Positions 6,839-37,055 of a stretch of DNA of 64,000 nucleotides are shown here, in pieces. The stretch is from contig CBFGUK010000001.1 in NCBI GenBank assembly GCA_965651925.1, positions 3,396 through 67,395 on the forward strand, read 5' to 3'. The notes beneath the pieces are model-generated. The model did not search any database, was not told where the DNA came from, and saw nothing but the letters and a program-made list of their open reading frames with translations. Within the stretch, counting starts at the first letter, position 1. Every line of letters begins with the position of its first letter. Source of the DNA: an uncultured bacterium. GTDB taxonomy: Bacteria; Desulfobacterota; Binatia; HRBIN30; CADEER01. Position numbers and translations under genes: made by a program.

Positions 6839-6870
6839 GCGGTCCTCCTGCGTCGGGAGCAGATGAGTAG

Positions 6871-6957: not shown

Positions 6958-6968
6958 CCAGATTCCGA

Positions 6969-6996
6969 CCGGTCACCGGTCACTGGTCACCGGTCA
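6969..6996. repeat. Tandem heptanucleotide array (CCGGTCA/CTGGTCA)x4, 8 nt downstream of the trx-TPR gene stop
   Basis: ccggtca ccggtca ctggtca ccggtca read directly; period 7. Confidence 0.8.
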
Positions 6997-7004
6997 CGCT
7001 TTTC

Positions 7005-9027: not shown

Positions 9028-9143
9028 CGTCGAATCCTCCTTTCACAGTCGTTCGTGCTGCTCCCGCGCGCCGCGTGAGCTGACGGCTTCTCCGCCGGCC
9101 GGCCGGATCGCTCGCCGCCCTGGTCCTTCCGCGCCGAAGGGCC

Positions 9144-9187
9144 AAAAAAAAGGGCCACCGGTTTTCACCGGTGGCCCTTTGGGTTTG
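9144..9187. terminator. Strong bidirectional Rho-independent terminator (A-run, GGGCCACCGG-TTTTCA-CCGGTGGCCC hairpin, T-rich tail)
   Basis: Perfect 11-bp GC-rich stem flanked by AAAAAAAA and TTTGGGTTTG; reads as hairpin plus U8 on the minus strand, downstream of ddl. Confidence 0.85.
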
Positions 9188-9209
9188 AGATTCCTGGGGT
9201 GTGTTGCTG

Positions 9210-9380
9210 CTAGGAGACCCCTCCCGCGGGACCACCGGACGGTACCGGTCGAATGGCGATGCGCGCCTTCTTGGCGGCCGTCGCCACCGAACCCGTGTCC
9301 GTCTGCGCGCACGCGAACCACATCGCGCCGCCGTCGGCGATTAGATGATTGGTCGTGTGCGTGAACATGATCTGCATGGG
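9210..9380 (-). CDS. Possible small ORF (55 aa) between terminator and ddl; could instead be non-coding
   Basis: MQIMFTHTTNHLIADGGAMWFACAQTDTG...; no recognisable family, weak RBS. Confidence 0.2.
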   Translation of the reverse strand, partial: PMQIMFTHTTNHLIADGGAMWFACAQTDTGSVATAAKKARIAIRPVPSGGPAGGVS

Positions 9381-9539
9381 TCCCTGGATGAATTCCGTTG
9401 TGCGAATTTCCCTACACCCGCGATCGCGTCGGGCGCAAGGCATTTTCTCTCACGGTCGTGGAAGAAGGGCTTGCGGACCGCGGCGCCCGCGCTATGGGCG
9501 CGCGCCGCCCCGCCCGCGCAACGGACGGGCGTCCGGCGC

Positions 9540-10643: not shown

Positions 10644-10674
10644 GTGCCGCCGGTTCTAGCGCCGGGGCAGCGGC

Positions 10675-10874
10675 GTGACCAGTGACCGCGTCGCGCAACG
10701 ATCCGGGAGCTGAACCGCCTTCCGGACATGGCGCTGTAGGCGGTCCTGGTTTCCGGGGCGCGAGAACGAACGGCCGGGCAAAGCCCAGCTGCCGTGACCA
10801 GTGACGAACCGAACGCTGCGGTGAAATGAGCGGAGACGACCGGTGACGGGTCACTGGTTACCAGTCACCGGTCA
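10675..10874. repeat. Composite intergenic element D: GTGACCA-type heptamer units at 10675-10688 and 10794-10807, and an inverted (CYGGTCA)x5 array at 10840-10874
   Basis: Heptamer units read directly; left and right arrays are reverse complements; lies between the ddl start and the stop of the small secreted-protein gene. Confidence 0.7.
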
Positions 10875-10882
10875 CCGCCAAC

Positions 10883-11167
10883 TCACATGTGCTCGCCCAT
10901 GCGATCGTAGGTGCCTTCCTCGCCGATCGGCTCGTAGCCGAAGATCTCGTCGAGGCCGGGGCGGGACACAATGTAGTGCAGCGGGCGCATCACCAGCCAT
11001 TCGACGGTGTAGCCCACCGGATGGATCAGGTAGTACGCGAGGCGAAGCGGGTGGCTGAACGCGTCCTCGTACTGTTCCTCGTCCGGGTAGCGATCGGCGG
11101 CGCCGGCCGTGCCGGTCCCGAGCGCAAGCATCGCCGTCATCATCGCAATCGCCAGCAGTCGCTTCAT
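10883..11167 (-). CDS. Small secreted hypothetical protein (94 aa, signal peptide)
   Basis: MKRLLAIAMMTAMLALGTGTAGAADRYPDEEQYED...; GGAG RBS; the upstream part of the 221-aa ORF is Arg-rich artefact. Confidence 0.5.
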   Translation of the reverse strand: MKRLLAIAMMTAMLALGTGTAGAADRYPDEEQYEDAFSHPLRLAYYLIHPVGYTVEWLVMRPLHYIVSRPGLDEIFGYEPIGEEGTYDRMGEHM

Positions 11168-11232
11168 CGAAGAGCTCCTTCCGCGTCGGCAGCGTAGCGG
11201 GCACCGGTGCCCCCGGCAACCGCGAACTGTAC

Positions 11233-12036
11233 TCAAAATTTGCCGTCGGGCTGACGATAGCCGATCAGGCTGACCTGACGGCCCGCCTGGCCGCCGCTGG
11301 CGCGATGCGAGAAGTACGCCCCGGCGGCACAGCGCGTACACGGACCGACGCTGGCGATCGCCTCGCCGCGGGCGCCGGCGGCGACGAGGATGGCGCGGTT
11401 CGCGGCGCGCAGATCGAGCTGCCCAAGGCGCCCGGCGGGCTGCCAGGCATCGGGCAACGCCCCCCAGCGGTCGGTCAGGCGCGCCCCGATCTCCGCTTCG
11501 ACCTCGTAGCAGCAGCCGCCGATCGAGGGGCCGAGCGCGAGCTGCCACGCCTCAAGCGGAATGCCGAGTGCCGTGCGGGCCTCCGTCAGGGCTGCTGCGG
11601 CGATGCCGGCGAGCGTTCCGCGCCAGCCGGCGTGCACGGCAAGCACGGCCCCGTGTGCCGGTGCCACGCCGAGCAGCGGCACGCAGTCGGCGGTCAGGAC
11701 AGCGAGCCCGACGCCATGGCTGGCGGCGAGCATCGCGTCCGCCTCGCCGACCGGCTCGTCCGGCGCCGAGACGTGCACGACGCGCGCGCCATGCACCTGG
11801 TGCATGCGCACGATGCGCAGCCCCGGCGCGGCGCGCGCCACGCGGCGCCAGTTCGCATCAACCGCCGCCGGCTCGTCGCCGACCGCCGCCGAGACGTTGA
11901 GCGACGCAAACGGCCCGGTGCTGTGGCCGCCGTGGCGACCGAAAAAGCCGTGCGTCAGGCCCGCGATGTCCGCCCAGGCCTCGACCCGCACGGCGGGCGG
12001 CGGGGTGGCATCGGGGACGCCCGGGACGGCAGCCAT
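11233..12036 (-). CDS. pgeF: Peptidoglycan editing factor PgeF / YfiH (polyphenol oxidase-like purine nucleoside phosphorylase family)
   Basis: GLTHGFFGRHGG...ADCVPLLG...HAGWRG motifs of the YfiH/DUF152 family. Confidence 0.8.
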   Translation of the reverse strand: MAAVPGVPDATPPPAVRVEAWADIAGLTHGFFGRHGGHSTGPFASLNVSAAVGDEPAAVDANWRRVARAAPGLRIVRMHQVHGARVVHVSAPDEPVGEADAMLAASHGVGLAVLTADCVPLLGVAPAHGAVLAVHAGWRGTLAGIAAAALTEARTALGIPLEAWQLALGPSIGGCCYEVEAEIGARLTDRWGALPDAWQPAGRLGQLDLRAANRAILVAAGARGEAIASVGPCTRCAAGAYFSHRASGGQAGRQVSLIGYRQPDGKF

Positions 12037-12039
12037 CGC

Positions 12040-12252
12040 TCAGCGCAATTCGCGCTTCACCAGCACCTGACCGTCGAGCGGCTCGCCCTTCGGCCCGGTG
12101 CGTCGTCCGCCGCGCTTCCCGAGTGTCGCCAGCGTGTCCGGGTTCACCCACGGCACGCCGTAGACACACGGCTTCGCCTGCCCGTCCTCGTCGATCGCCT
12201 CCTGGCTCGGAAACTCCGCGCGCGAGAAGTTGCTGACCAGTCGCTTGCCCAT
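12040..12252 (-). CDS. Hypothetical small protein (70 aa); start uncertain (alternative ATG at 12384)
   Basis: MGKRLVSNFSRAEFPSQEAIDEDGQAKPCVYGVPWVNPDTL...; stop is 4 nt from the pgeF start; no family recognised. Confidence 0.3.
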   Translation of the reverse strand: MGKRLVSNFSRAEFPSQEAIDEDGQAKPCVYGVPWVNPDTLATLGKRGGRRTGPKGEPLDGQVLVKRELR

Positions 12253-24207: not shown

Positions 24208-26640
24208 TCACAACATGTGCTGCGGGTCGACGTCGACGATGACTCGAATGTCCTTCGGCCGGGCGGCGGCGCGCAGGTCCGGCAGCGTGGCGCCGACGAT
24301 CTCGCGCAGGACGGCCCCGCTCGCGCCGCGCACCATGATCTGCTGGCGAAACCGCTGGCGCAGCCGTTCGAGCGGCGCCGGAGCCGGGCCGAGGACGCCG
24401 CAGCGGCCGGCGGCACGCTCGCGCAGCTGGCGCGCCGCATCGCGCGCCAGCTTGGCGACCGCTGCGCCGTCCACGCCCTCGATGCGCAGCAGGATGATGC
24501 GGGAAAACGGCGGATACCCGAGCTCGCGGCGCGCGGCGAGCTCGGCTTCGGCGAACGCCGCATAGTCGTGCGTCGCCGCCGCACGCAGGCTGTCGTGCTC
24601 GGGCTGCAGGGTCTGCACGAGCACCTGGCCGCGCTTCTCGCCGCGACCGGCGCGGCCGGCCACCTGGGCGAGGAGCTGGAAGGTACGCTCGCCGGCGCGG
24701 AAGTCGGGGAAGTTGAGCGCCGCGTCGGCGAGAATGACGCCGACGAGCGTCACGCCGGGCACGTCGTGGCCCTTGGTGATCATCTGCGTGCCGATCAGGA
24801 TGTCGAACCGCCCGGCGCGCCAGTCACCGAGCAGCGTCTGCTGGCTCCCCTTGCGGCGAACGGTATCGCGGTCCATGCGCGCGACGCGCGCGCCGGCAAA
24901 GCGCGCGCGCAGCAGCGCCTCGAGCTGCTCGGTCCCGACCCCCCACTCGATCAGCGCCGGCTCGTGGCATTCGCGGCACGCGGCCGGCGGCGGCAGGGTG
25001 TGGTCGCAGTAATGGCAGCGCACGGCGCGCCAGCGGCGGTGCACGGTCATCGCGACGCTGCAGTTCGGACACATCAGCGGCTCGCCGCAGGCGCGGCACT
25101 GCAGGAAATTCGCGAAGCCGCGGCGGTTGAGGAACACGAGGCTCTGCCCGCCGGCGGCGAGGTTGGCGGCCAGTGCCGCGTCGAGCTCGGGGGTGAGCAC
25201 CGGCGGCTGCGCGGCGGCATGCGCGCGCAGATCGATCAACCGCACCGGCGGGAGCGGGCGGGCGGCGACGCGTTCCGGCAGCTCGAGCAGCCGGTACCGG
25301 CCACGGCGTGCGTTCCACAGCGACTCGAGTGACGGCGTCGCCGAGCCGAGGATGATCGGACAGCCGCCGAGCTTGGCGCGCATCACCGCGACGTCGCGTC
25401 CATGGTAGTGCACGCCGTCGGCCTGCTTGTAGGAGGCGTCGTGCTCCTCGTCGACGATGATCAGGCCGAGCCGGCGCAGCGGTGCGAACACCGCCGAGCG
25501 CGCCCCGATGACGATGCGCGCCGCGCCGCGGGCGATGCGCCGCCACTCGTCCCAGCGCTCGCCGACCGAGAGCTGGCTGTGCAGCACCGCGACCGCATCG
25601 CCGAAGCGCGCCCGCACGCGCTCGACGAGCTGGTGGGTGAGCGAGATCTCCGGGACGAGCACGAGGGCCGACGCCCCGGCGGGCTGCGCCGCGATGGCGC
25701 GCAGATACACTTCCGTCTTGCCGCTGCCGGTGACCCCGTGCAGGAGCCAGGCGACGAACCCCTCCGCGCGTGCCGCGACGATGGCCTCGACGGCGGCCTC
25801 CTGCGCCGCGGTGAGCGCGACGGCGACGTCACGCGCCACGACCGGCGGCAGGACCGGCCGGTACTGCTCCTCCTCGCGCACGCGCACGAGGCCCGCCGCA
25901 ACGAGCGCGCGCAGCTTCGCCGCGGCATCGGCGAACGAATGCCGCAGCTCGTGGTCGGGCGCGCGGCGCAGCGGATGCTCGCGCAGATACGCGTAGAGCG
26001 CGCGCAGGGCCGGCCGGCGGGCGAGCGCGGCCGGCAGGGGGTCGCGGGGCACGGCCTCGTAGAACCGCTGCCGGCGCGTCGGCGCCGTCTCGCGGCGGAC
26101 GCGCTCGCGCACGACGGCGACGCCGCGGCGCACGAGCGCCGCGAGCGCGCGCCGGCCCGGCGGGCCGAGGCGCGCGACGAGCGGTGCCACCTCGCACTCG
26201 CCGCGCTCGGCGAGCGCGCGCGCGACGGCGGCCTCGCCGGCGGGCAGGTCGTCCGGCGGCGGTCCGGTCAGCGCCGCGACGCGCGTCGTCTCGACGCGCA
26301 GCGCGCCGGGCAGCGCCGTACTCAGCACCTCGCCGAGCGAGGCGAGATAGTAGTCCGCCATCCACGCCGCGAGGGCGAGCAGCGGCGCGTCGAGCACCGG
26401 CTCGTCGTCGAGCACGGCGGCGAGATCGCGCAGTCCGTCGCGCGGCTCACCGGGCGCGAGCACGATGCCCATGGCGCGCCGGGCGCCGAGCGGCACGAGG
26501 ACGCGCGTACCGGGCGCGAGCGGACCCGGCGCGCGGTAGTCGAGCGGCGCGATGCGCCCCGGCGCCGGCACGAGCGCGACGCGCACCACCGCCGCGGGCG
26601 CGGCGGCCGTTCCTGCCGGTGGCTCGGATCCTCGCTCCAC
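24208..26640 (-). CDS. priA: Primosomal protein N' (replication restart helicase PriA); start approximate (likely GTG ~26638-26640)
   Basis: Walker A GVTGSGKTEVYL, DEEH box, PriA-type Cys4 zinc fingers (CRACGEPLMCPNC...CHYCDHTLP...CRECHEP). The annotated ATG at 26718 would overlap the upstream gene by 65 nt. Confidence 0.85.
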   Translation of the reverse strand: MERGSEPPAGTAAAPAAVVRVALVPAPGRIAPLDYRAPGPLAPGTRVLVPLGARRAMGIVLAPGEPRDGLRDLAAVLDDEPVLDAPLLALAAWMADYYLASLGEVLSTALPGALRVETTRVAALTGPPPDDLPAGEAAVARALAERGECEVAPLVARLGPPGRRALAALVRRGVAVVRERVRRETAPTRRQRFYEAVPRDPLPAALARRPALRALYAYLREHPLRRAPDHELRHSFADAAAKLRALVAAGLVRVREEEQYRPVLPPVVARDVAVALTAAQEAAVEAIVAARAEGFVAWLLHGVTGSGKTEVYLRAIAAQPAGASALVLVPEISLTHQLVERVRARFGDAVAVLHSQLSVGERWDEWRRIARGAARIVIGARSAVFAPLRRLGLIIVDEEHDASYKQADGVHYHGRDVAVMRAKLGGCPIILGSATPSLESLWNARRGRYRLLELPERVAARPLPPVRLIDLRAHAAAQPPVLTPELDAALAANLAAGGQSLVFLNRRGFANFLQCRACGEPLMCPNCSVAMTVHRRWRAVRCHYCDHTLPPPAACRECHEPALIEWGVGTEQLEALLRARFAGARVARMDRDTVRRKGSQQTLLGDWRAGRFDILIGTQMITKGHDVPGVTLVGVILADAALNFPDFRAGERTFQLLAQVAGRAGRGEKRGQVLVQTLQPEHDSLRAAATHDYAAFAEAELAARRELGYPPFSRIILLRIEGVDGAAVAKLARDAARQLRERAAGRCGVLGPAPAPLERLRQRFRQQIMVRGASGAVLREIVGATLPDLRAAARPKDIRVIVDVDPQHML

Positions 26641-26653
26641 GGCGTGGATCGGC

Positions 26654-29600
26654 TCAGGCGCGGACGACGCGCTGGTAGATCTTCGGCAGCTCGCGCGGCA
26701 GCGCGGTGATGTCTTCAATGACCATGTACCGCGTCTCGTCGCACATCTGCCGCAGGTAGTCGTGCCCGGCCTTGTCGACGGTGATGCAGAACGGGGTGAC
26801 GCCCGCCGCCTCCGCCTCGCGCAGCGCGACCGCCGTGTCGCGGATGCCGTAGACGTTGCTGCGCCGGTCCTGGCCGTAGTCGTAGTCCTGCGGGAACCCG
26901 TCGCTGAGCAGGAACAGATGCTTCACGCGCGCCGTCACGGCGCCGAGCTTCTCGATCGCGTGCCGCAACGCCGTGCCCATGCGCGTGCTGCGCTTGGGCT
27001 CGATGCCGCCGAGGCGCCCCTTGACCGTCGCGCTCAGGGATTCGCTGAACGACTTGACGCGGTAGACCTCGACGCGGTCGCGGCCGTGCCCGGAAAAACC
27101 GTAGATCGCATACGCATCGCCGATCTCCTCCAGCGCCTCGGCCATGATCACCAGCGTTTCCTTGGTGACGTCGATGATGCGCCGCGCCCGGCCGCCGCCG
27201 CCACGCGGCGCCCCGGTCGTCGCGGGTGACTCGAAGGGCTCGTCGGTCGAGGCGCTCATGTCGACCAGGAACAGCGTCGCGACGTCGCGCTCCTCGCGCT
27301 TGCGCGCCACGTACACGCGGCTCGACGGCGCCTGGCCGGCGCGGCGGTCGATGCGCGCCGCGATCGCCGCATTGAGATCGAAGTCCTCGCCGTCCTCGAG
27401 GCCGCGGACGGTGCGGTACATCTCCGGGCGGACGCGCTGGAACTGGCGGCGCACCTCGGGAATCAGACGCGCGTAATCGCCCAACGCCCGGTTGAAGAAC
27501 TCGCCCGAGTCGCCGGCGACGCTGAGCTCGTAGAGTCGGCACCAGCCGCTGCGATAGTCGCCGATGTGGTAGTCCCACTCGTCGTACGCGAAGTGCTCGC
27601 CGGCGCTGTCCTCGGCCCGCAGGCGGCGCGCGATGCGGCGACCGCCCGCATCGCCGTCGCCGAGCAGCTCGCGCAGGGCATCGAGCTGTTCGCTCGGCAG
27701 CTTGCCGATGAGATCGGTGATGAAGAGCCCGAGCCCCTCGACCTCCTGGCCGGTGCCCTGGGTGATCTTCAGGTTGCCGCTCTCGAGCAGGCGCTGGATC
27801 TCCTCCGCCGACAGCGGCTGCGCGCCGCCGGCGCCCTCGAGCTCGTCCGGTGACAGCTGCAGCGACGGACGGTCCGCCTCGTCAGCGATCGGTTCGCCGC
27901 CGGGCGGCGCCGCCTCGGTGTGCGGCGCCGTCCCGGCCAGGGCCGGTCCTTCGTCGTCGCCGTACATGTCGAGCAGCGCATCGCCGGTGAGCCGGTCGAG
28001 CGCGAAGCCATCGAGATCGCGATCGCTTTCGACATAGGCGGGCTGCGCAGCGGCGAGCGCGCCGGCGAGTGACTCGGCGACGCGCAGGGCATCCCCGACG
28101 GTCGCCTCGGGCGCCGCCAGCGGCGCGACGCAGCGCGCGATCAGCCGCGCGCCGGGCTCGTCGAGCCAGCGCGGCAGCGGGCCGGGCGCGGCGCCGCGCA
28201 GCACGAGGCAGAACACGGCATCGAGCCGGCCGGTGCGCGGCGGTGCGGGCTGCATCGCCCAGCGCTCGAGCAGGCGCTCCGCGACCCAGCGTCCCTCGGC
28301 GGCCAGCCCGCGATACTCGGCACACAGCCGATGATGGACGCGCACGCCTTCGGCGAGCAGGAACAGCTCCTCGAGGGCCTCCGGCCGGTCGGGATCGGTG
28401 ACGAAGCGGAACAGATCGCCGCCCGGCGGCAGCTCGGGATCGGCGGGTGCGGCGGGGTCGGTGAACGCGTAGGTGCCGAACTCGCGCCGGCCGGCGAGCT
28501 GCGCGGCAAGGAACCGGTAGAGACGCAGGTTGTCCTCGTGGGTACCGAGCCAGTCGATGCGCAGCGGCAGCGCGATCTCGTTCTCGCCCGGGAACTCCTC
28601 GAGCGGCGGGCGCAATCGCATGACGTCGAAGGCGCGGATGCTCGCCGACGCGCCGCTCAGCATCTGCACGTACTTGCGCAGCAGGCCCTGCGCTTCCTCG
28701 AGCGTCGCGGCGATCGAGGAGGCGCGCAGCGTCTTGCGGCTGGTCCGCGATTCGAGCGCAAAGAAGGCGAGCCCGGCGTCGGGGTTGTCCGCCGCGAGCG
28801 TGAGCCCGACGTCGAACCACTCGCGCACGCGCGGCGGATCGGCATCCTCGTAGACGCGCGGCAGCGAGCGCAGTGCCGCGACGACGGCGGCCGGACAGGC
28901 GGCGGCGACGCGGGCGAGCTCGCCCAGCCCTTCGAGGCGATGCGCGGACGGCACCTGCAGCAGGAGCGCGCCGGCGACCGGCGCCACCTCGGCGACCGGA
29001 CCCGCCACGCGCCGCGCGGCCTGGTGCAGCACGTCGAGCAGGGCGCCGCGCTCCGCACCGTCGAGCGGCGCCAGCGCATCGGGCAGCGCGCGGTAGAGCG
29101 CGAGCGCGTCGCGCGGGGCCGCGGGGGCGAGCGCGATGACCGTGCGCAGCAGCGCGCACTGTTCGTCGGCGGTCCAGCCCTGCACGCTGCGCGGCAGCGC
29201 GCCGAAGAACTCGCGTTCCTTGACCGCCGGCAGCAGCGCCGCGCCGGCGCCGGCCCACAGCCGATAGGCCGCCGGGGCGAGCGCGAGCACCGCGTGCGGG
29301 GCGGCGGCGAAGTAGGACTGGGCCAGGAACTCGCCCTGCCAGCCGCGCTGGCCGTAGAGGTCGCCGCCGATCGCCACCCAGTCGCGCAGCCGGGCGAGGC
29401 CGTCGGCGCGGCGCAGCAGGGAGGACGTCGAGCGGAAGAAGATCGCGGCCAGCTTGCCCGAGGTCGCGGCGAGCTCGCGGCCGAGCGCGCACCAGGCGGC
29501 GGCCGTCTCGAGACCGCCGCGGCCGAAGGCGGCGGGCGACACCGTGAAGAACGCGACGGCCCCGTCGCGGCACAGCGGCTCGTCGGTCGCCAGACGCTCG

Positions 29601-29875
29601 CCGAGGGCCAGCCAGCGCTCGAAGCCGTCCGTGCCGAAGGCCGTCCAGACCTGGGCGGCGCGCCGGTAGAAGCGCTGCGCGAGCACCGCCGAGACGGCCG
29701 CGAGGCGATCGCCGTCGGCGAGCAGCCGGGCATGCACCGCCGGGCCGAGCGCCTGCGCGGCGGCGTGCGCGGCGGCGCCGTCGGGATCGTCGAGCAGGTG
29801 GCTGCCGAGCCACACGCCGCGCAGCGCGTCCGGCTTGCGGTCAGCCATGGTGCGGCGGGCGTGCCGTGCCGGCAC
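26654..29875 (-). CDS. CbbO/NorD-like protein: long helical N-terminal region plus C-terminal von Willebrand factor A domain (MIDAS DMSASTDE); 1073 aa
   Basis: C-terminal ~230 aa matches the NorD/CbbO vWA domain (LFLVDMSAS...LLSDGFPQDYDYG...CITVDKAGHDYL). Start is either GTG 29873-75 or ATG 29836-38. Confidence 0.75.
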   Translation of the reverse strand: MPARHARRTMADRKPDALRGVWLGSHLLDDPDGAAAHAAAQALGPAVHARLLADGDRLAAVSAVLAQRFYRRAAQVWTAFGTDGFERWLALGERLATDEPLCRDGAVAFFTVSPAAFGRGGLETAAAWCALGRELAATSGKLAAIFFRSTSSLLRRADGLARLRDWVAIGGDLYGQRGWQGEFLAQSYFAAAPHAVLALAPAAYRLWAGAGAALLPAVKEREFFGALPRSVQGWTADEQCALLRTVIALAPAAPRDALALYRALPDALAPLDGAERGALLDVLHQAARRVAGPVAEVAPVAGALLLQVPSAHRLEGLGELARVAAACPAAVVAALRSLPRVYEDADPPRVREWFDVGLTLAADNPDAGLAFFALESRTSRKTLRASSIAATLEEAQGLLRKYVQMLSGASASIRAFDVMRLRPPLEEFPGENEIALPLRIDWLGTHEDNLRLYRFLAAQLAGRREFGTYAFTDPAAPADPELPPGGDLFRFVTDPDRPEALEELFLLAEGVRVHHRLCAEYRGLAAEGRWVAERLLERWAMQPAPPRTGRLDAVFCLVLRGAAPGPLPRWLDEPGARLIARCVAPLAAPEATVGDALRVAESLAGALAAAQPAYVESDRDLDGFALDRLTGDALLDMYGDDEGPALAGTAPHTEAAPPGGEPIADEADRPSLQLSPDELEGAGGAQPLSAEEIQRLLESGNLKITQGTGQEVEGLGLFITDLIGKLPSEQLDALRELLGDGDAGGRRIARRLRAEDSAGEHFAYDEWDYHIGDYRSGWCRLYELSVAGDSGEFFNRALGDYARLIPEVRRQFQRVRPEMYRTVRGLEDGEDFDLNAAIAARIDRRAGQAPSSRVYVARKREERDVATLFLVDMSASTDEPFESPATTGAPRGGGGRARRIIDVTKETLVIMAEALEEIGDAYAIYGFSGHGRDRVEVYRVKSFSESLSATVKGRLGGIEPKRSTRMGTALRHAIEKLGAVTARVKHLFLLSDGFPQDYDYGQDRRSNVYGIRDTAVALREAEAAGVTPFCITVDKAGHDYLRQMCDETRYMVIEDITALPRELPKIYQRVVRA

Positions 29876-29923
29876 GCGGCGACCAGCGGGCGGCGTGCGG
29901 GCCCCCTGCCGCGCGCCGGCGCA

Positions 29924-30733
29924 TCAGCCCCCGAAGATCGAGCCGACGAGCTCGTCGATCGCGCGCTGACTCTCGAGATCGTCGGTGAGCGACTTCGCCA
30001 CCGAGACCTGGCAGGCGCGGCGCGCCGGCACGCCGCGCGCGATGAGCTGCCCGGCATAGACGAGCAGGCGCGTGCTGACCCCTTCCTCGAGCCCGCTCGC
30101 CTTCAGGTGGCGCACCTTCTCGCCGAGCTTGGCGAGATCCATCGCCACCTCGAGCGGCGCGCCGCTCTCGTGCGCGATGACCTGCGCCTCCTTGTCGCGC
30201 GGCGGGTAGTCGAAGTCGATGGTGACGAACCGCTGCCGCGTCGAGTGCTTCAGGTCCTTGAGCACGCTCTGGTAGCCGGGGTTGTAGGAGATCACGAGCA
30301 GGAAATCGGGGTGCGCCTCGATGATCTCGCCGCGCTTGTCGATCGGCAGGATGCGGCGGTGGTCGGTGAGCGGGTGGATGAGCACCGTCGTGTCCTTACG
30401 CGCCTCGACGATCTCGTCGAGGTAGCAGAACGTCCCGGCGCGCACCGCCTGGGTGAGCGGCCCGTCGACCCAGACGGTCTCGTCGCCCTTGATCAGGTAG
30501 CGGCCGACGAGATCGCTGCCGGTGAGGTCCTCGTGGCAGGCGACGGTGATCAGGTTGCCGGCGATGCCGTGTTCGCCGCGCCCGCGCAGCGTGTGCGCCA
30601 TGTACTCGACGAAGCGCGTCTTGCCGCAGCCGGTCGGACCCTTGAGCAGGATCGGCAGGCGGCAGGCATAGGCGGCCTCGAAGATCGCCACCTCGTCGCC
30701 GATCGGCAGGTAATACGGCTGCGGCTCGCTCAC
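29924..30733 (-). CDS. CbbQ/NorQ/NirQ/GvpN-family MoxR-type AAA+ ATPase
   Basis: [46 protein letters not shown] (Walker A) and [13 protein letters not shown] (Walker B); start overlaps the stop of the upstream gene (ATGA). Confidence 0.85.
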
Positions 30734-31857
30734 GGCGTGATCGTCTCCATGGTCTCCCCCGACTGGGCGTCGACCAGCACGACGGTGATCGCCGTGCCGC
30801 CGCCGTGCAGCGCCGCCGCGTCGCGCACGCCGCCACGCAGGCGGTCGATGAACTTGTCGCGTACCGGTCCCGGCATGCTCTGCATCGGGAACTCGCGCAG
30901 CACGACGCGCACCGCGTCCTCGGCGGGCCAGTCGATGCGCTCGATGCGCGAGCCGGCGATCGGATGGCCGCGGAAGACCTTCTCGACGTCGCCGCGCAGC
31001 GTGCTGCCCGGCGTCGGGGCACCCGCGTCACCGGGAGCGGCCGGCGCGCTCAGCCGGGCGAGCAGGGCATCGATCCGCCGGCGCGTCGGATCGTCCGGGG
31101 CGATCTCGCGCGCCCGGCGCAGCGCCGCGAGCGCCGCGGCATCATCGCCTTTGGCGCGCTGGGCGAGCGCGAGATTGAACTGCGCCTGGAAGAAATCGGG
31201 GTCGCTGCGCAGCACGGCCTGATAGGCCTCGAGCGCCTCGTCGACCTGGCGGTCGGCGAGCAGCATCGTCGCGAGGTCGGTCTGCACGCTGAGGTCGTCG
31301 GGCTTCACGGCCAGATAGCGGCGGTAGAACTCCATCGCGCGCTTCGGCTCGTTGCGGTCGTAGGCGATGTTCCCCAAGCCCCGCAGCGCATCGGGATCCT
31401 CGGGCGCCGCGTCGAGGATGTGCGTGTAGGTCGCGGTCGCGTCGGTGAGATAGGCGGGATCGACCTGCCCGGCGCGATACTGCACGAAGCCGAGCTGGCG
31501 CCAGGCCTCGAGATCCTGCGGCTTTTCCTTCGCAGTCTCGACCATCTTCGCGATCACGTTGCGGACGTCGGCCGGCACCTCGAGCGGCGGGTGATCGGCC
31601 GGCATCGGCGCGCCCGACCCCGCGGTCCGCGGCGGGGGAACGTTCGGCGGATTCGCGTTCAGGCGGCCGACGGCGACCGCCACCGCCCCGACGACGAGCA
31701 CGCTCGCGACGACGAACAGCGGTGCGGCGCGGACGGCGAATCGCGGGCGACGGGCCGGTGCGCCGGTCCCGCCACCGACCGGGCGGCCGCACGCCGTGCA
31801 GAAGCGCGCGCTGGCCGGCAAGGCGGTGCCGCACTCGGTACAGAATCGATCAGCCAT
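30730..31857 (-). CDS. Zinc-ribbon / TM / TPR-repeat protein (375 aa), first gene of the operon ahead of the CbbQ-like and CbbO-like genes
   Basis: [28 protein letters not shown] (double CxxC zinc ribbon), hydrophobic segment [24 protein letters not shown], then TPR-like repeats ([33 protein letters not shown]...). Confidence 0.6.
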
Positions 31858-31974: not shown

Positions 31975-32535
31975 ATGCGTCGAGGATGGTCGTTGGCCGG
32001 GGTTCTGCTGGCCCTGTGTTTCAGCTCGTGCACGTGCAGCAGCAGCACCCCGGAAGTGCCGAAACCGACCCCCGTGGCACGCGGCGGCTGGATGGGGAAG
32101 CCCTCGCCGCGCTCGCTGCCCGATCGCGGCCCGGGCATGGCCGTGACCCCGGGTGATGTCGAGGCGCGCGAGGCACCGACGCCGCCACCGACGCCCGAGC
32201 AGGCGGTCCTTCCCGACGACTTCCCGTCCGACGTGCCGGTCTTCGAGGGCGCCGAGGTCGCGGCCGTGCAGAAGCTCGCCAATGGCGCCAGCAACGTCGT
32301 CTTCACCGTCGAGGATGCCGACGCGCCGCAGGTGTTCAGCTTCTACAAGAACGACATGCGCGGCAACGGCTGGGACGTGGAGCAGGAGTACGAGGGCAAG
32401 GAACAGTCGTTCCTCTCGTTCAAGAAGGGCAACACGATCACCAACGTCAGCGTGACGAAGGACCCGAAATCCGGGAAGCGGGTCGTCGCGGTGATGTACT
32501 ACGACGAGCAGCCGCTGCCGTTCGACGAGTTCTGA
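31975..32535 (+). CDS. Putative lipoprotein / secreted protein (186 aa)
   Basis: RBS GGGAGGACGAGGAACCAATG; signal MRRGWSLAGVLLALCFSSC (Cys for possible lipidation); Pro-rich linker then a small globular domain. Confidence 0.55.
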   Translation: MRRGWSLAGVLLALCFSSCTCSSSTPEVPKPTPVARGGWMGKPSPRSLPDRGPGMAVTPGDVEAREAPTPPPTPEQAVLPDDFPSDVPVFEGAEVAAVQKLANGASNVVFTVEDADAPQVFSFYKNDMRGNGWDVEQEYEGKEQSFLSFKKGNTITNVSVTKDPKSGKRVVAVMYYDEQPLPFDEF

Positions 32536-32548
32536 GGACGGCACCGGG

Positions 32549-34123
32549 GTGCGGCCCCTCGCGCCGGGCCTCTGTGCCCTGCTGCTGATCCTGGTGCCGG
32601 TCGCGGCACCGGTCGGCGCCACGACGGTGGTGCCGATGCGCGTCCCGGAGCTGACCGCGGCCTCGATCGGCGCGGTGCGCGGCCAGGTGCTGCGCATCGC
32701 CTCCGCCGCCGCCCCCGTTTCGGGGGCGATCTCGACCTACATCACCCTGCTCGTCGACGAGGTACTGTTCGGCCCGTTCGCGCCCGGCGAGCTCGTGCTG
32801 CGCGAGCTCGGCGGGCGCGTCGGCGGGCGCGCCGAGCGGGTCTTCGGCCAGCCGGAGTATTCCGTCGGCGAACGCGTGCTCGTCTTCCTCAGCCGCCACG
32901 CCGACGGCACGCTGCGCACCACCGAGATGAGCCTCGGCAAGCTCAGGCTGCGCGACGCATTCGGCGGCACGCGCGCGCAGCGCACGCGCGTCCCCGGCGT
33001 GCGCACCCTCGTGTCCAAGTCGGTGGCCATCGATCTGCCGTATGCCACCCTGCGCGAGCGCATCCGCCGCGCCGCCCCATCCGCGGGCACGCGGCTGCCG
33101 ATCGTCCAGCGCCCGGAGCTCGGCGGTCTGCGCCTCGAGGTGCAGCCGGCGTTCCGGCTGCTGCAGCCGTTCTCCCGCTGGTTCGAGCCCGACGCGGGCA
33201 TGCCGGTCGGTTTCCTCGTCGACACCACCGGCGACGCGACGCTCGGCGCCGCGGTGTCCCGCGCGGCCGTCGGCGCCGGCCTCGCGGCCTGGAGCGGACT
33301 GCCGTTCTCGCCGCTCTCCCTGTACGACGCCGGCGACACCGATCCGGCGCCGTTCCCCAACTGCCCGAGCGCGAGCCGCATCGTGTTCAACGATCCGTTC
33401 GAGGAGATGGGCGATCCGCACAACTGCCGCGGCACGCTGGCGATCGGCGGCTTCTGCGAGAACCCCGAGGACACCATCGTCGTCGGGCCGCGCACGTTCC
33501 AGCGCATCACCGCGGGCAAGGTGACGTTCAACGACGGCTGGGGCGGCTGCCCGATCTGGACGCCGTGCAACCTCGCCGAGATCGCCACCCACGAAATCGG
33601 CCATACCCTGGGCTTCAACCACTCCGAGGATCCCACCGCCACGATGGCGGAGGTGGCGCATTTCGACGGCCGCTGCTCCTCCCTCGCCGAGGACGACCGC
33701 GACGCCGTGCTGGCGGTGTATCCCTTCCCGCCCTCGCCGAGCGCCACGCCGACGGTCACCGACACGCCGGCGCCGACCACCACGCCGAGCGTGACCGCCA
33801 CGCCCTCGCGCACCGGCACGATCACGCGCACGCCGTCGCGCACGCTCACGCCGACGCGTACGGCATCGCGGACGCGGACGGCGACGCCGACCCGTACCCC
33901 CCCGCCGACGCGCACGGCGACCGGCCCGACCCGCACGCCGACGGCGACGGCGACCGTCACCGCACCACCGACGGGCACCCCCAGCGCCACCGCCACGCGG
34001 ACACCATCTCCCCCGGCCTCACCGACAGCCACCGTCACCGTCACGCCGCGTCCGCCACGGCCCTGGATCGCCGTGGTGGCCGAGGCGTTGCGCCGGACGC
34101 TCGAGCGCTCGGACGCGCCGTGA
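32549..34123 (+). CDS. Secreted metzincin (matrixin/M10-like) zinc metalloprotease with C-terminal Thr/Pro-rich linker
   Basis: GTG start, signal peptide. HEIGHTLGFNHS (HExxHxxGxxH) is followed by the TMA Met-turn. Paralogous to 34440..37055. Confidence 0.75.
   Translation: MRPLAPGLCALLLILVPVAAPVGATTVVPMRVPELTAASIGAVRGQVLRIASAAAPVSGAISTYITLLVDEVLFGPFAPGELVLRELGGRVGGRAERVFGQPEYSVGERVLVFLSRHADGTLRTTEMSLGKLRLRDAFGGTRAQRTRVPGVRTLVSKSVAIDLPYATLRERIRRAAPSAGTRLPIVQRPELGGLRLEVQPAFRLLQPFSRWFEPDAGMPVGFLVDTTGDATLGAAVSRAAVGAGLAAWSGLPFSPLSLYDAGDTDPAPFPNCPSASRIVFNDPFEEMGDPHNCRGTLAIGGFCENPEDTIVVGPRTFQRITAGKVTFNDGWGGCPIWTPCNLAEIATHEIGHTLGFNHSEDPTATMAEVAHFDGRCSSLAEDDRDAVLAVYPFPPSPSATPTVTDTPAPTTTPSVTATPSRTGTITRTPSRTLTPTRTASRTRTATPTRTPPPTRTATGPTRTPTATATVTAPPTGTPSATATRTPSPPASPTATVTVTPRPPRPWIAVVAEALRRTLERSDAP
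33735..34050 (+). repeat. Coding Thr/Pro-linker repeat (PTVTDTPAPTTTPSVTATPSRTGTITRTPSRTLTPTRTASRTRTATPTRTPPPTRT...)
   Basis: Nucleotide-level acg/ccg/acc tandem repetition. Confidence 0.65.
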
Positions 34124-34439
34124 AGCGGCCAGCCGCGGTGTCGATCCGCGGCCGCGAAGCCCGTGCAGGCGGGTCGGCAACCGACAGCGGAACTGCGCCG
34201 TCTACGCCTTTTTCAGATGACGCCGGGCGCGCATGCGAGCCCGCACGGCGCGGCACCGCGTTTCGCATCGCATCCCGCACAGCATCCTCGCAGGACGCAC
34301 AGCACCCGCCACGGACGAAAATTGTCCCCATAACGGTTGGATGATTTTGTGACGCACCGCGGCAGAGCCGACGAGCGAACGGATGTTCACCCGCTGCGCG
34401 TGCAGCGTGTGGCACATCGCTCGCTCTACCGGGCGGCAT

Positions 34440-37055
34440 ATGACCCGGATCACAGAAGGCAAAGGGCGCGTCGGGTGGGCCGTAGTGGCGCTGGTGCTCC
34501 TCGCCTTCGGCCGTGTCGAGGCGAGCACGTTCGTGCTCATGGACGAAGCCGATCTCGCCGCGCGATCGGTCGCGGCGGTCCGGGGCACGGTGACCGAGAT
34601 CACCTCCGGGATCGACGGCGCCGGCGACGGCGTGCACACCTACGTGCGCATCGCGCCGCAGCAGGTCGTCCTCGGCGCGCTGCCCGCCGGCGACATCGTC
34701 CTGCGCGAAACCGGCGGCCGCGTCGACGGCCTCAGCGAGTGGGTCTTCGGCAGCCCGGAGTATCACGTCGGCGAGGAGGTGCTGGTCTTCGTCAGCGCCA
34801 CCGGCGACGGCACGCTGCACACCACCGGCCTGGCGATGGGCAAGTTCTCCGTCAGCCGCGACGCGACCGGCCGCATCCGGGCGATTCGCCGCCTCGGCGA
34901 GGGCGTCTCCGTCTGGGATCCGCAGACCGGAACGTTCGAGGAGGCGCCCGGCGATGAGGAATACGATCTCGACGCGATGCAGCGCGCGCTGCGCGACGCG
35001 GCCGGGCGGCTGACGACCAAGTCGCGGCGCCAGGCGACCGCGGTGCGCGCGCTGCCGGTGGAGATGACCCGGCTGCGGATGCGCGAGCAGCACGCGGCGT
35101 TCACGTACCTCAGCACGCCCTCGCGCTGGTTCGAGCCCGACGAGGCGCAGCCGATCGCCTTTCTGATCGACGGCACGGGAGACGTCGGGCTCGGTCCGGT
35201 CACGTCGCGGCAGGCGATCACCGACGCGTTCGCCGCCTGGACCAACGTGCCGAATTCCGACCTGACGCTGATCGACGGCGGCACGCTCGCCGCGCCGGTC
35301 ACGTTCGCGGGGTGCAGCGGCGGCAACCGCGTCATGTTCAACGACCCGTTCAACGAAATCGCGGACCCGAGCGGCTGCAGCGGCGTACTCGCCATCGGCG
35401 GCTTCTGCGCGTCATCGGAGACGCGGGTCATCAACGGGACGAACTTCCGCCGCATCCGCGTCGGCAAGGTCACCTTCAACAACGGCTGGTCGAAGTGCGG
35501 CGGCTGGGGCCGCTGCAGCGTCGCCGAGGTGGCGACGCACGAGCTCGGCCACACGCTCGGCTTCGGCCACTCGCCCGATCCCGGCGCGACGATGTACGCC
35601 AGCGCGCACTTCGACGGCCGCTGCGCTGCGCTGCGCCAGGATGATCTCAACGCCGTCGCCTTCGTCTATCCGAGCCTCGCCAGCCCGACGCCGACGCGCA
35701 CGTTCACGCCACTGCCGCCGACGCCGACCGCGACGCGCACCCGCACCGCCACGGCGACGGTGCCGACGCCGACCGTTCCGCCACCGACCGCGACCCGCAC
35801 GGCCACCCGCACGGCGACCGCGACCATCCCGCCGGCGACGGCGACGGTCACGCCGACCGTCCCGACACCGACCGCCACGGCGACCCGCACGCCGACCGCA
35901 ACCGTTCCCACCGCCACCGCGACCGCCACCCGCACGGTGCCGCCGACGGCGACCACGACCCCGACCCGCAGCATGACCGCGACGCGGACGGCGACGCGCA
36001 CGCGCACGGCTACCCGGACCGCGACGATCCCGCCGACGGCGACCCGCACCGCGACGGCGACCCACACCGCGGTGCCGCCGACCGCGACGGCCACGCCGCT
36101 GCGCATCTCGGTGCGCGGGCGCGTGCGGTACTACGCCGGCGGCCAGGGGGTGCCGGGCGTGACCATGACCCTGCGCGGCCAGATGGTCGCCGCGGTGGAT
36201 ACAGGGATCACGGGCGAGTACGCGTTCGACGCCGTGCCGGCCGGCAGGTTCTGCGAGGTCGCGGCGAACAAGGCGCGCGACTTCGGCAACGCCGTCTCAC
36301 CGCTCGATGCCGCGTTCGTCCTGCAGCACGTCGCCCGGCTGCGTGCGCTCGATAGCGATCAGCAGCTCGCCTGCGACGTCACCGGCGACGGCACGGTGAG
36401 CACGCTCGATGCGGCACGGCTGCTCGAGTTCAGCGTCGGCGCAATGGCGCGCATGCCGCTCGCCGAGCTGTGCGACGGCGACTGGCTGTTCGTCCCCGAT
36501 CCGGAACCGGCAGTGCAGCCACTCGCCATCTCGCCGTCGATCGACGGCGGCCACTGCGAGGCCGGCAAGATCATGCTCGAGGATCTGCTCACTGAAGCCG
36601 AGGAGCAGAACTTCCGCGCGCTGCTGATCGGTGATTGCACCGGCAACTGGCAGACCGGCGCCGGGGCTGCGCTGCGCGCACGCGCCGGTCGCGGAACCCC
36701 GGTCGTGCGGCTCGGCCGTGTCGTCGTCCGCGACGGCGTGGCGAGAGTCCCTGTCCACGTACGTGCGCGCGGCGGCTTCACCGCCCTCGACCTGCACCTG
36801 CGCTACGATGCCGCCGCCCTCACACCGGCCGCGGCGCAGCTGCGCCGCCCGGCGGACAGCGCCATCATCAGCATGCACGCCCCGGAGCCCGGCACGCTGC
36901 GGGTCGCGCTCGCGAGCGGCACGGTGCTCGACCGGCGCCGCGGTTCGCCGCTGCTGATCGAGTTTGCCGTCGCCGGCTCCCCCGCGAACACGGCGGTGCA
37001 GCTCGATGCGGCGTTCGTCGACGAGGCGCCCGCGACCCTCCGCGCGGTGCGCTGA
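34440..37055 (+). CDS. Secreted multidomain metzincin protease: M10-like catalytic domain, Thr/Pro linker, CarbopepD-reg-like beta domain, dockerin-like EF-hand loop and C-terminal cohesin-like domain
   Basis: Signal peptide MTRITEGKGRVGWAVVALVLLAFG; HELGHTLGFGHS with Met-turn ATMYAS; DVTGDGTVSTLDAARLLEF dockerin-like loop; C-terminal VVRLGRVVVRDGVARVPVHVRARGGFTALDLHLRYDAAAL cohesin-like. Confidence 0.7.
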   Translation: MTRITEGKGRVGWAVVALVLLAFGRVEASTFVLMDEADLAARSVAAVRGTVTEITSGIDGAGDGVHTYVRIAPQQVVLGALPAGDIVLRETGGRVDGLSEWVFGSPEYHVGEEVLVFVSATGDGTLHTTGLAMGKFSVSRDATGRIRAIRRLGEGVSVWDPQTGTFEEAPGDEEYDLDAMQRALRDAAGRLTTKSRRQATAVRALPVEMTRLRMREQHAAFTYLSTPSRWFEPDEAQPIAFLIDGTGDVGLGPVTSRQAITDAFAAWTNVPNSDLTLIDGGTLAAPVTFAGCSGGNRVMFNDPFNEIADPSGCSGVLAIGGFCASSETRVINGTNFRRIRVGKVTFNNGWSKCGGWGRCSVAEVATHELGHTLGFGHSPDPGATMYASAHFDGRCAALRQDDLNAVAFVYPSLASPTPTRTFTPLPPTPTATRTRTATATVPTPTVPPPTATRTATRTATATIPPATATVTPTVPTPTATATRTPTATVPTATATATRTVPPTATTTPTRSMTATRTATRTRTATRTATIPPTATRTATATHTAVPPTATATPLRISVRGRVRYYAGGQGVPGVTMTLRGQMVAAVDTGITGEYAFDAVPAGRFCEVAANKARDFGNAVSPLDAAFVLQHVARLRALDSDQQLACDVTGDGTVSTLDAARLLEFSVGAMARMPLAELCDGDWLFVPDPEPAVQPLAISPSIDGGHCEAGKIMLEDLLTEAEEQNFRALLIGDCTGNWQTGAGAALRARAGRGTPVVRLGRVVVRDGVARVPVHVRARGGFTALDLHLRYDAAALTPAAAQLRRPADSAIISMHAPEPGTLRVALASGTVLDRRRGSPLLIEFAVAGSPANTAVQLDAAFVDEAPATLRAVR
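35690..36100 (+). repeat. Coding Thr/Pro/Ala-linker repeat (PTPTRTFTPLPPTPTATRTRTATATVPTPTVPPPTATRTATRTATATIPPATATVTPTVPTPTATATRTPTAT...)
   Basis: Long run of acg/ccg/gcg codon repeats; the opposite strands yield Arg-rich artefact ORFs. Confidence 0.65.

Follow-up and report, generated by a model that had tools for sequence, protein, structure and literature searches.

To our knowledge, motors of the CbbQ/NorQ type have only two established clients, Rubisco and cNOR. NorQ and NorD together form the chaperone for FeB insertion into cNOR (PDB 9qh4-9qhg). [quoted passage not shown] Among cNOR loci, norQD lies near norCB in 195 of 259 cases. The roles of the finger, tail, mid domain and linker have been described for NorQD (PMC13036017), and element roles have been reported for CobST (preprint 10.64898/2026.07.21.739949). 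In VWA proteins associated with MoxR, target specificity is thought to be set by the N-domain (PMC9976466).

The locus described here encodes a CbbQ-like motor (Q) and a long vWA adaptor (D). Judged by sequence, this long-form pair appears to be a variant of the CbbQ/NorQ remodellers, closely related to the Rubisco-repair and cNOR iron-loading machines; the N-terminal solenoid of the adaptor, ~375 aa, is a new part of the NorD-like build. The window, i.e., the whole stretch of DNA that was analysed, comprises 64,000 nt. The initial annotation had placed three genes on the minus strand, followed 13 nt later by priA. All three ORFs are present on that strand (30730..31857, 29924..30733 and 26654..29875) with a coding-type GC3 of 0.93-0.95, and the position of the priA start agrees. 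The stop codon of the TPR gene overlaps the start codon of the AAA+ gene in 4 nt that read GTGA; ATGA had been given previously. The genes are:

31975..32535, plus strand: AF_1845 (PF27226) family member, secreted or lipoprotein-like, transcribed divergently from the TPR gene
30730..31857, minus strand: zinc-ribbon, single-TM protein of 375 aa with TPRs predicted to be periplasmic (Pfam; TM call)
29924..30733, minus strand: CbbQ/NorQ-clade MoxR AAA+ ATPase of 269 aa, the putative motor (Pfam AAA_5 and CbbQ_C)
26654..29848, minus strand: long-form NorD/CbbO-type VWA adaptor, 1064 aa from ATG 29848 (1073 aa if GTG 29875)
24208..26640, minus strand: priA, GTG start at 26640, 13 nt 3' of the vWA stop (Pfam PriA domains)

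Downstream of priA follow def, fmt, rsmB and rpe, in that order. The adjacency of priA to the Q-D pair is the gene order of some Binatota only: some relatives have a VTT/DedA or MFS_MOT1 gene in between, others have no priA there, and the priA-def-fmt-rsmB-rpe linkage is lost in loci L084 and L085 and in Chloroflexota. This linkage is a lineage gene order and functionally unrelated to the Q-D system. A Pfam scan of most of the ~56 called genes of the window found no Rubisco, NOR or oxidase genes, as had been stated earlier for Rubisco and cNOR. PADLOC models of anti-phage defence systems gave weak generic AAA+ matches (best 8e-7, RtcR) and none for the VWA or TPR protein.

The motor matches AAA_5 (PF07728, 1.2e-30) and CbbQ_C (PF08406, 5.8e-28), so that both core and lid domain are present, and it shares 57-60% identity with the CbbQ and NorQ proteins of known structure, which upholds its first description as a CbbQ/NorQ-type MoxR ATPase. 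On these similarities it is classed as a member of the CbbQ/GvpN/NorQ (CGN) subfamily of MoxR AAA+ proteins. Its PDB matches are HnCbbQ (5c3c, E 9e-102), NorQ (9qhd/9qh4, E 1e-97) and AfCbbQ2 (6l1q, 5e-94), with 57-59% identity to the two CbbQ structures and ~60% to NorQ. Walker A (GPTGCGKT, aa 32) and Walker B (FCYLDE, aa 102) are intact, as is the H2-insert motif at aa 77 (consensus GRxL(L/I)xxxxT), which is shared with NorQ and touches the VWA finger (PMC13036017). Unlike NorQ, the motor carries an extra surface insertion:

30554..30586, minus strand: AAA+ insertion, aa ~50-60, flanked by the post-Walker A helix and the strand LITVACHED

This insertion is missing from all four solved CbbQ/NorQ sequences. 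At the same site, 6-29 aa are inserted in the AAA+ partners of long vWA proteins from Binatota (6/6) and Chloroflexota (70/72). The AAA+ phylogeny, a check suggested in the initial annotation, points both ways: on a subsample, 79 of 100 NJ bootstraps group the long-form motors into an exclusive clade, which the one NJ tree of the full set does not recover, and the long-form motors are not cleanly set apart from CbbQ.

For the adaptor, ATG 29848 is the more likely start than GTG 29875: public gene call P0001 uses it, and the alignment of homologues sets in at this codon. The length of 1073 aa first assigned to it is therefore more likely 1064 aa, but the protein is, as claimed, much longer than NorD or CbbO. 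More than 120 homologues have 1010-1080 aa, and 88 of the top 150 clusters in a 50%-identity library reach at least 950 aa. What had been described as a helical N-region of ~800 aa consists of a helical solenoid (375 aa), an alpha/beta domain (235 aa) and a disordered acidic linker (140 aa), which precede the finger and VWA domain:

28724..29848, minus strand: alpha-solenoid at the N-terminus (aa 1-375), made of some nine helical hairpins, repeat length ~39 aa
28019..28723, minus strand: alpha/beta mid domain, 235 aa, with apparent remote homology to NorD NTD / CobT_N
27599..28018, minus strand: disordered acidic G/P-rich linker, aa 611-750, ~140 aa (pLDDT 30-60)
27284..27430, minus strand: VWA finger, aa ~807-855, tip GLEDGEDFDLNA, aligning to the PdNorD finger 403-448
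26657..27283, minus strand: VWA domain with MIDAS and the NorD-like C-terminus LPKIYQRVVRA (Pfam VWA, 1.2e-6)

The solenoid is modelled by AF2 with a pLDDT >90, and its ~39-aa repeats follow the consensus W..(L/I)G..L...A..(F/Y)F...P..L. It matches no Pfam or NCBIfam model and, structurally, generic folds only; its periodic W/G/F residues are conserved in both Binatota and Chloroflexota. It is proposed to be a client-recognition platform. A profile of the mid domain alone (AF2 pLDDT mostly 85-95) has its top PDB matches in PdNorD (34-119/156-203, E 9.7e-5), CobT_N (1.9e-4) and JtNorD (6e-3), and the mid-domain matches of a full-length profile search are collinear. These matches suggest remote homology of the mid domain to the N-domains of NorD and CobT. 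The linker (21% D+E, 21% G+P) is the least conserved adaptor region, with 17% identity to the Chloroflexota forms; it is analogous to the NorD linker, which is needed for metal insertion (PMC13036017).

The C-terminal 310 aa align end to end with NorD, finger and tail included, up to the final residues (profile 9e-68), in keeping with the earlier description of a CbbO/NorD-type vWA partner; the pairwise match to NorD (9qhd_G, E 1e-42) is restricted to aa 752-1063. The Pfam VWA match covers aa 903-1058 in the 1073-aa numbering. Nearly all residues of the finger, as defined for PdNorD (PMC13036017), are invariant among 50 homologues, and the MIDAS residues D863-x-S865-x-S867, T955 and D983 are all invariant in the same set. 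The AF2 model is poor over the VWA half (pLDDT <50), so the finger and VWA domain are assigned by sequence alignment only. All elements of NorD, namely the N-domain, linker, finger VWA, MIDAS and C-terminal tail, are found in the adaptor by alignment.

Genomes of at least 68 Chloroflexota species, the cultured Tepidiforma flava (NZ_CP115149.1) among them, carry the CbbQ-like gene and the long vWA gene as a pair, and so do members of several Binatota orders. The CbbQ-like gene lies upstream on the same strand at all Binatota loci and at 70 of the 78 Chloroflexota loci with a complete vWA ORF. In the neighbourhoods examined, the pair is surrounded by housekeeping genes in both phyla. No Rubisco or nor genes were found next to it among the Pfam-listed genes of nine Binatota loci, or near it in Chloroflexota, where the 40 ORF clusters recurring most often across 80 loci were covered.

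The conserved unit is this pair of genes. The initial annotation had proposed a dedicated three-gene module, to be checked by neighbourhood conservation; the Q-D part is kept in Binatota relatives and in Chloroflexota, and the third gene drops out. The encoded protein has a Zn_Ribbon_1 domain (aa 5-27), a hydrophobic segment (aa ~45-63) and TPRs (aa ~148-268). [quoted passage not shown] That it is a true third component in Binatota, as a membrane anchor, adaptor or client, is quite unlikely. The 4-nt GTGA overlap in the window argues for such a role, as does direct same-strand adjacency upstream of the pair in seven Binatota-type loci (the window, L001, L002, L003, L086, L087 and L088), among which vWA identity falls to 55%. 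However, the overlap is not conserved (gaps of 4-47 nt in the other loci), the gene is missing from L085 and from every Chloroflexota locus with the pair, and in L084 it is split from the pair by luciferase-like and DNA-glycosylase genes while still adjoining the AF_1845 gene. The latter, whose product is 42-61% identical to those of the PF27226-annotated genes of L002, L003, L084 and L086, lies next to the TPR gene, in divergent orientation, wherever the TPR gene occurs. The TPR gene is thus a lineage-specific neighbour outside the core, tied more tightly to the divergent lipoprotein gene.

For the mid domain as for the VWA half, NorD is the best solved relative: like it, the adaptor has a finger, a MIDAS VWA, a C-terminal tail, a disordered linker and an N-domain of remote homology, and the finger-in-pore twisting mechanism is probably shared with NorQD. 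The adaptor differs from NorD in being ~420 aa longer, with the extra 375-aa solenoid and a longer acidic linker; the pair also differs from NorQD in that its hosts belong to lineages in which denitrification is not known. The pair could be a dispersed NorQD-type metal inserter for cNOR or another membrane enzyme of the heme-copper-oxidase family, the solenoid being a lineage embellishment. Many family members are automatically named NorD, for instance by JGI pipelines; nir, nor or nos genes are known from the literature for some Binatota, and Binatota neighbours are often membrane-protein genes (ZnR-TM-TPR, VTT/DedA). Nevertheless, this is unlikely. In no neighbourhood examined does norCB adjoin the pair, in contrast to the frequent proximity of norQD to norCB at cNOR loci; the pair is conserved in Tepidiformaceae and Dehalococcoidia heterotrophs, whose published account does not mention NOR; and the N-region, ~400 aa longer than that of NorD, resembles it only remotely. 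Automatic labels such as "NorD" or "nitric oxide reductase activation" can inflate the denitrification potential of Binatota and Dehalococcoidia in metagenome surveys.

A conventional, unlinked CbbQO Rubisco activase is highly improbable, even though carboxysomal CbbQ is the best single PDB match of the motor and rpe is encoded ~6 kb downstream. As in CbbQO, a Q6O1-type motor with one VWA/MIDAS adaptor is expected, and, as in CbbO, the N-region shows little conservation beyond its family. Compared with the published description of CbbO, however, the adaptor has 1064 aa and a different, well-conserved N-region, and it is encoded among housekeeping genes rather than right after Rubisco genes (PMC4660213), in a phylum mostly without Rubisco. 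Rubisco and PRK occur in 3 Binatota genomes only among those analysed, all of the order Binatales, and Rubisco in no neighbourhood examined; rpe belongs to the housekeeping string def-fmt-rsmB-rpe.

CobT (PDB 9uka), which lacks the solenoid, has an N-domain (M48C-like), a disordered acidic linker and a VWA domain with a shaft into the AAA+ ring, and the mid domain of the adaptor is detectably homologous to it (CobT_N, E 2e-4 to 4e-5 across profile searches). The shared layout of N-domain, acidic linker and VWA (preprint 10.64898/2026.07.21.739949) would fit a class-I chelatase-like (CobST/BchID-like) motor-adaptor system that delivers metal to a tetrapyrrole-handling subunit. There is, however, very little probability of this, as the motor has CbbQ_C and 60% identity to CbbQ/NorQ and is not of the CobS or BchI type, and no CobN/ChlH-like client gene is present in the neighbourhoods examined.

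The reading we consider reasonably probable is a two-gene cytosolic finger-in-pore remodeller, similar to NorQD and CobST, that most likely acts on a client other than Rubisco and cNOR; a remodelling system of the MoxR-vWA kind with an unknown substrate had been suggested earlier, and the lack of Rubisco or nor genes near any pair examined supports it. Domain architecture, intact motifs, homology and the pairing across two phyla are observed; the geometry of the complex, its mechanism and the nature of its client are what we infer. A hexamer of the AAA+ motor and one long VWA adaptor would form a cytosolic chaperone, with the VWA finger in contact with the H2 inserts inside the AAA+ pore, the adaptor C-terminus docked on the post-sensor-1 loop, and the NorD-NTD/CobT_N-like mid domain bound to the small AAA+ subdomain. 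ATP-driven rotation would twist and stretch the acidic linker of ~140 aa. Two contacts would hold the client, one through an acidic side chain bound at the MIDAS site and one through the N-terminal solenoid, which is specific to this family, and the client would be pulled open so that a cofactor can be inserted or an inhibitor released.

Since the adaptor is unusually long and the pair lies among housekeeping genes in two phyla, the target is likely to be other than Rubisco or cNOR, and it is probably a housekeeping enzyme common to aerobic Binatota and Chloroflexota. A clade that spans two phyla, an adaptor N-region without a Pfam or NCBIfam model and a client-recognition domain of its own point to a third client class. 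As Tepidiforma flava is cultured, pulldown and biochemical tests are feasible.

In Chloroflexota, the slot between Q and D is occupied by a CoA-pyrophosphatase-like Nudix or a YfcE-type phosphodiesterase gene, which are mutually non-homologous, and CoaE is encoded upstream of the pair. This suggests that the motor may eject a tight-binding nucleotide- or CoA-derived inhibitor, which the hydrolase then destroys, comparable to Rubisco activase with the CbbY/XuBP phosphatase but with another enzyme as the target. That the pair is a system not recognised before, which repairs a housekeeping client or loads it with a cofactor and in Chloroflexota works with a phosphohydrolase, is a speculative idea of low probability.

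Orphan Q-D pairs of a medium form, with VWA proteins of 718-754 aa, occur in Proteobacteria MAGs. They share the mid domain, the VWA domain, the CbbQ-like partner and the lack of adjacent Rubisco or nor genes with the long-form pair; unlike it, they have no N-terminal solenoid and are found in other phyla and contexts. One medium-form pair adjoins a Mo-hydroxylase cluster.

The CbbQ-like AAA+ gene and the long VWA gene of the window encode an orphan chaperone of the MoxR–VWA type that belongs to the CbbQ/NorQ clade and has an adaptor architecture of its own. They lie on the minus strand together with a TPR gene, where the initial annotation had placed the three open reading frames (ORFs):

30730–31857, minus strand: TPR gene, an ORF nested in a longer spurious ORF
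29924–30733, minus strand: CbbQ-like AAA+ gene, from an ORF scan
26654–29875, minus strand: VWA gene, from an ORF scan, with ATG 29848 as the likelier start

The GC content of the window is 72%, and that at the third codon position of the three ORFs is 0.93–0.95, which matches the expectation for real genes of this genome. Two details have been corrected. The overlap between the TPR and AAA+ genes, described as ATGA, is a GTGA start/stop overlap, and the VWA protein, given as 1073 aa from a start at 29875, more likely has 1064 aa from ATG 29848, where the family alignment and a public gene call also begin. The next gene encodes a complete PriA according to Pfam; its GTG start at 26640 indeed follows the VWA stop by 13 nt, and def, fmt, rsmB and rpe come next, then tRNA-Pro, glnB and glnA. 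Pfam assigns Zn_Ribbon_1 (aa 5–27) and multiple TPR families (aa ~148–268) to the TPR protein, AAA_5 and CbbQ_C to the AAA+ protein, and a VWA domain to the C-terminal end of the VWA protein. In NCBIfam, the VWA protein is without a model, and the AAA+ protein shows sub-threshold GvpN similarity only. An exact-sequence lookup returned no record of the window's own VWA protein; for the AAA+ protein, the sole match was a 4.7-kb twin contig (L001).

The VWA protein consists of four regions. With 50 homologues as input, AlphaFold2 models residues 1–610 with very high confidence and the rest poorly.

Residues 1–375: alpha-solenoid with a ~39-aa repeat, W..(L/I)G..L...A..(F/Y)F...P..L
Residues 376–610: alpha/beta mid domain
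Residues 611–750: disordered, acidic (21% D+E), G/P-rich linker
Residues 751–1064: finger and VWA domain, matching solved NorD over the full length of the region (E 1e-42; profile 9e-68)

The N-terminal 750 residues have no Pfam or NCBIfam model. Against the whole PDB, a profile of the mid domain alone has as top matches the N-terminal domain of Paracoccus denitrificans NorD (E 9.7e-5), CobT_N (1.9e-4) and J. thermophila NorD (6e-3), and the mid-domain matches of the full-length profile are collinear. The NorD alignment takes in the finger (PdNorD 403–448; here ~807–855), the MIDAS DxSxS-T-D residues and the C-terminal tail, and nearly all of these positions are invariant across the family. 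The acidic linker resembles that of NorD, in which the length and sequence of the linker are essential for iron insertion (PMC13036017). The NorD-like mid domain, linker, finger and VWA domain thus make the protein a NorD-type adaptor, extended by an N-terminal solenoid and with a lengthened linker. In the solenoid, only the W/G/F positions of the repeat are kept between Binatota and Chloroflexota.

The mid domains of Chloroflexota members (alignments A2 and A3; e.g. aa ~400–500 of the L014 protein) carry the degenerate-zincin-like motifs 'TDG..I.LP...NF..YKV..(T/A)HQAG..EFG' and 'ED.RID', many with a second His after HQAG. A conserved catalytic metallopeptidase site ('HQAGH..EFG / ED.RID') was considered and rejected, because the histidines are lost in Binatota members (LAAQLAGRREFG / AEGVRVHH). 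The degenerate motif fits the non-catalytic M48C-like fold of CobT_N (10.64898/2026.07.21.739949).

By the names of its homologues, the window belongs to "Candidatus Binatia" (Binatota). More than 120 clusters (90% identity) hold proteins of 1010–1080 aa, with alignments covering 95–99% of the query at identities down to 53%. An exhaustive search of a 50%-identity library gave 3841 VWA-protein matches; among the best 150 of these representatives, 88 have at least 950 aa, and an HMM finds the N-terminal solenoid in 86 of the 88. Long forms occur in "bacterium HR30", from another order of Binatota, and in Chloroflexota and Dehalococcoidia at 27–32% overall identity. A GTDB survey with one genome per species, using a profile built from distant forms, yielded at least 80 loci; the matches listed are all from Chloroflexota (Dehalococcoidia, Tepidiformaceae), near full length in almost all cases, and one host is the cultured Tepidiforma flava YIM 72310. 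In Proteobacteria MAGs, shorter relatives of 718–754 aa combine the mid and VWA domains but have no solenoid. A solenoid-only profile retrieved just 14 matches from 5.8 billion proteins, none of them with a Pfam domain, so no alternative solenoid architecture turned up. The two with inspected contigs, the Binatota loci L087 and L088, are pieces of members of the same family, split by frameshifts. In several long-read metagenome assemblies (L087 7169–11086; L088 7185–9089 and 12815–15225), the AAA+, VWA and priA genes are fragmented by apparent frameshifts, and such fragments figure in protein databases as short 'solenoid-only' proteins.

Seven Binatota loci (the window, its twin contig L001, L002, L003, L086, L087 and L088) share a common gene order. 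One strand carries matrixin-like genes and an AF_1845-family gene, and the other carries the TPR gene, the CbbQ-like gene, the long VWA gene, an optional VTT/DedA or MFS_MOT1 gene, priA, def, fmt, rsmB and rpe. The optional gene, for a VTT/DedA-family membrane protein or an MFS_MOT1 transporter, is seen at L002 13213–13851, L003 13211–13867, L087 11189–11845 and L086 13442–14644; the window has no such insert. The two most divergent Binatota loci have a histidine kinase, a sigma-54 response regulator and PspA just upstream (L084 1707–5150; L085 2666–6287), genes that the window lacks.

In Chloroflexota (L004–L083; e.g. L014 7756–13213, L077 9286–9882), the pair sits in its own conserved operon, as defined by ORF clustering and Pfam, unlike the Binatota order. 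The CbbQ-like gene lies upstream on the same strand in 70 of the 78 loci with a complete VWA ORF. CoaE precedes it in 58 of 68 loci, and CinA is often convergent downstream of the long VWA gene. Between the CbbQ-like and VWA genes, there is a CoA-pyrophosphatase-like Nudix gene in 30 loci, a YfcE-type metallophosphoesterase gene in 19 and nothing in 19. Non-homologous phosphohydrolases in a single slot hint at a functional link.

The initial annotation had proposed a three-gene module including the TPR gene. This grouping does not hold across relatives: luciferase-like and DNA-glycosylase genes part the TPR gene from the AAA+ gene in L084, where it stays with the AF_1845 gene and priA is absent from the neighbourhood; L085 has no TPR gene at all in its neighbourhood; and neither the TPR protein nor priA occurs in any of the 78 Chloroflexota loci. 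Since the CbbQ-like and long VWA genes persist in both phyla while the TPR gene and the priA string vary, the conserved unit is the pair. The priA string reflects lineage gene order, and the TPR gene, a neighbour in Binatota only, goes with the divergent AF_1845 gene.

The AAA+ protein shares 57–60% identity with HnCbbQ, AfCbbQ2, PdNorQ and JtNorQ and 67% with the Chloroflexota partners of long adaptors. Its Walker A, Walker B and H2-insert motif GRxL(L/I)xxxxT are all intact; the last grips the NorD finger in NorQD (PMC13036017). One surface site between the post-Walker A helix and the strand "LITVACHED" (window 30554–30586, minus strand; also in the AAA+ genes of L002–L086) carries an insertion of 6–29 aa in 6/6 Binatota and 70/72 Chloroflexota motors paired with long adaptors, and in none of the four solved CbbQ/NorQ proteins compared. 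The extra adaptor domain could dock at this variable insertion. A phylogeny against CbbQ and NorQ gave a divided answer: with insertion columns removed, a subsample of motors formed an exclusive long-adaptor clade in 79 of 100 neighbour-joining bootstraps, but the single full neighbour-joining tree places both CbbQs inside that group, so the AAA+ phylogeny is not decisive.

A mechanism can be modelled on the NorQD and CobST structures (PMC13036017; 10.64898/2026.07.21.739949). CobT_N reportedly contains an M48C-like domain, which docks onto the small AAA+ subdomain of CobS and also contacts CobN, the client (10.64898/2026.07.21.739949), and the NorD N-domain also binds the small helical subdomain of NorQ (PMC13036017). 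By analogy, one adaptor would serve each Q hexamer, with its finger in the AAA+ pore against the H2 inserts, its C-terminus on a post-sensor-1 loop and its mid domain seated on a CbbQ_C lid. With the mid domain anchored, hand-over-hand, ATP-driven steps would turn the finger and VWA domain against it and stretch the acidic linker. A client gripped by an acidic side chain at the MIDAS site and by the solenoid might thereby be deformed, letting a cofactor in or a ligand go. For Chloroflexota, the alternating Nudix and YfcE hydrolases allow the speculation that inhibitor release is coupled with degradation.

MoxR–VWA pairs without assigned clients are expected by specialists. Rubisco and cNOR, the clients of the nearest systems, were correctly reported as missing from the window: a Pfam scan of about 45 of its ~56 called genes matched housekeeping or secreted-protein genes and no Rubisco, NOR or oxidase gene. 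Neither Rubisco nor nor genes occur in any Binatota, Chloroflexota or medium-form neighbourhood examined. A canonical client could possibly be encoded far from the pair. CbbQO genes follow directly on Rubisco genes, with a CbbO of ~770 aa (PMC4660213), and norQD is near norCB in 195 of 259 NorQD-dependent cNORs. A Binatota genome survey found PRK and Rubisco in three genomes only, all Binatales, and, as weak negative evidence, Rubisco, the Calvin cycle and NOR go unmentioned in the Tepidiforma physiology paper. Target specificity is held to reside in the variable N-domains of MoxR-associated VWA proteins (PMC9976466); the long-form pair has a distinct N-region with good conservation inside the family, and this speaks for a distinct client. 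PADLOC gave no defence-system match, and a search of the literature library found no paper on CbbQ-type systems in Dehalococcoidia or on the long-form adaptor. Long-form adaptors are routinely mis-annotated as NorD, and the pair is close to two well-understood systems, kept across two phyla and found in a cultured organism.

The CbbQ-like pairs in the two medium-form (solenoid-less) loci inspected, with VWA proteins of 719–737 aa, are likewise orphans. In L089 (8384–12160), an ABC1 kinase gene lies beside the pair, and a gene for 183 aa without a Pfam match separates its members. In L090, the pair (4257–7701, minus strand) is divergent from a Mo-hydroxylase cluster (XDH/CODH-type, with cytochrome b; 9122–12214, plus strand).

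The TPR protein comprises a zinc ribbon, an Arg-rich stretch, one TM helix (aa ~45–63), a Pro-rich segment, the TPRs and a ~90-aa C-terminal domain. The positive-inside rule predicts a cytoplasmic ribbon and a periplasmic TPR part, which would confine direct contact with the cytosolic complex to ~40 residues. Divergent from it, and conserved with it in Binatota relatives, are:

31975–32535, plus strand: AF_1845-family protein, secreted, with signal peptide
32549–34123 and 34485–37055, plus strand: two matrixin-like (Peptidase_M10) proteins with long Pro/Thr-rich linkers, one with a dockerin

These constant, secreted partners suggest an envelope role for the TPR protein, separate from the pair, and the whole block may be one envelope module. 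About 20 kb downstream of the locus, a thioredoxin–TPR fusion (Thioredoxin and TPR_20/TPR_19; window 7005–7859, minus strand) has no apparent relation to the pair. ARAGORN reports an 88-nt tRNA-like element (34071–34158, plus strand) with a two-base anticodon ('cg') only, which overlaps the first matrixin-like ORF at its 3' end and precedes the second; a degenerate tRNA or a false positive may account for it.
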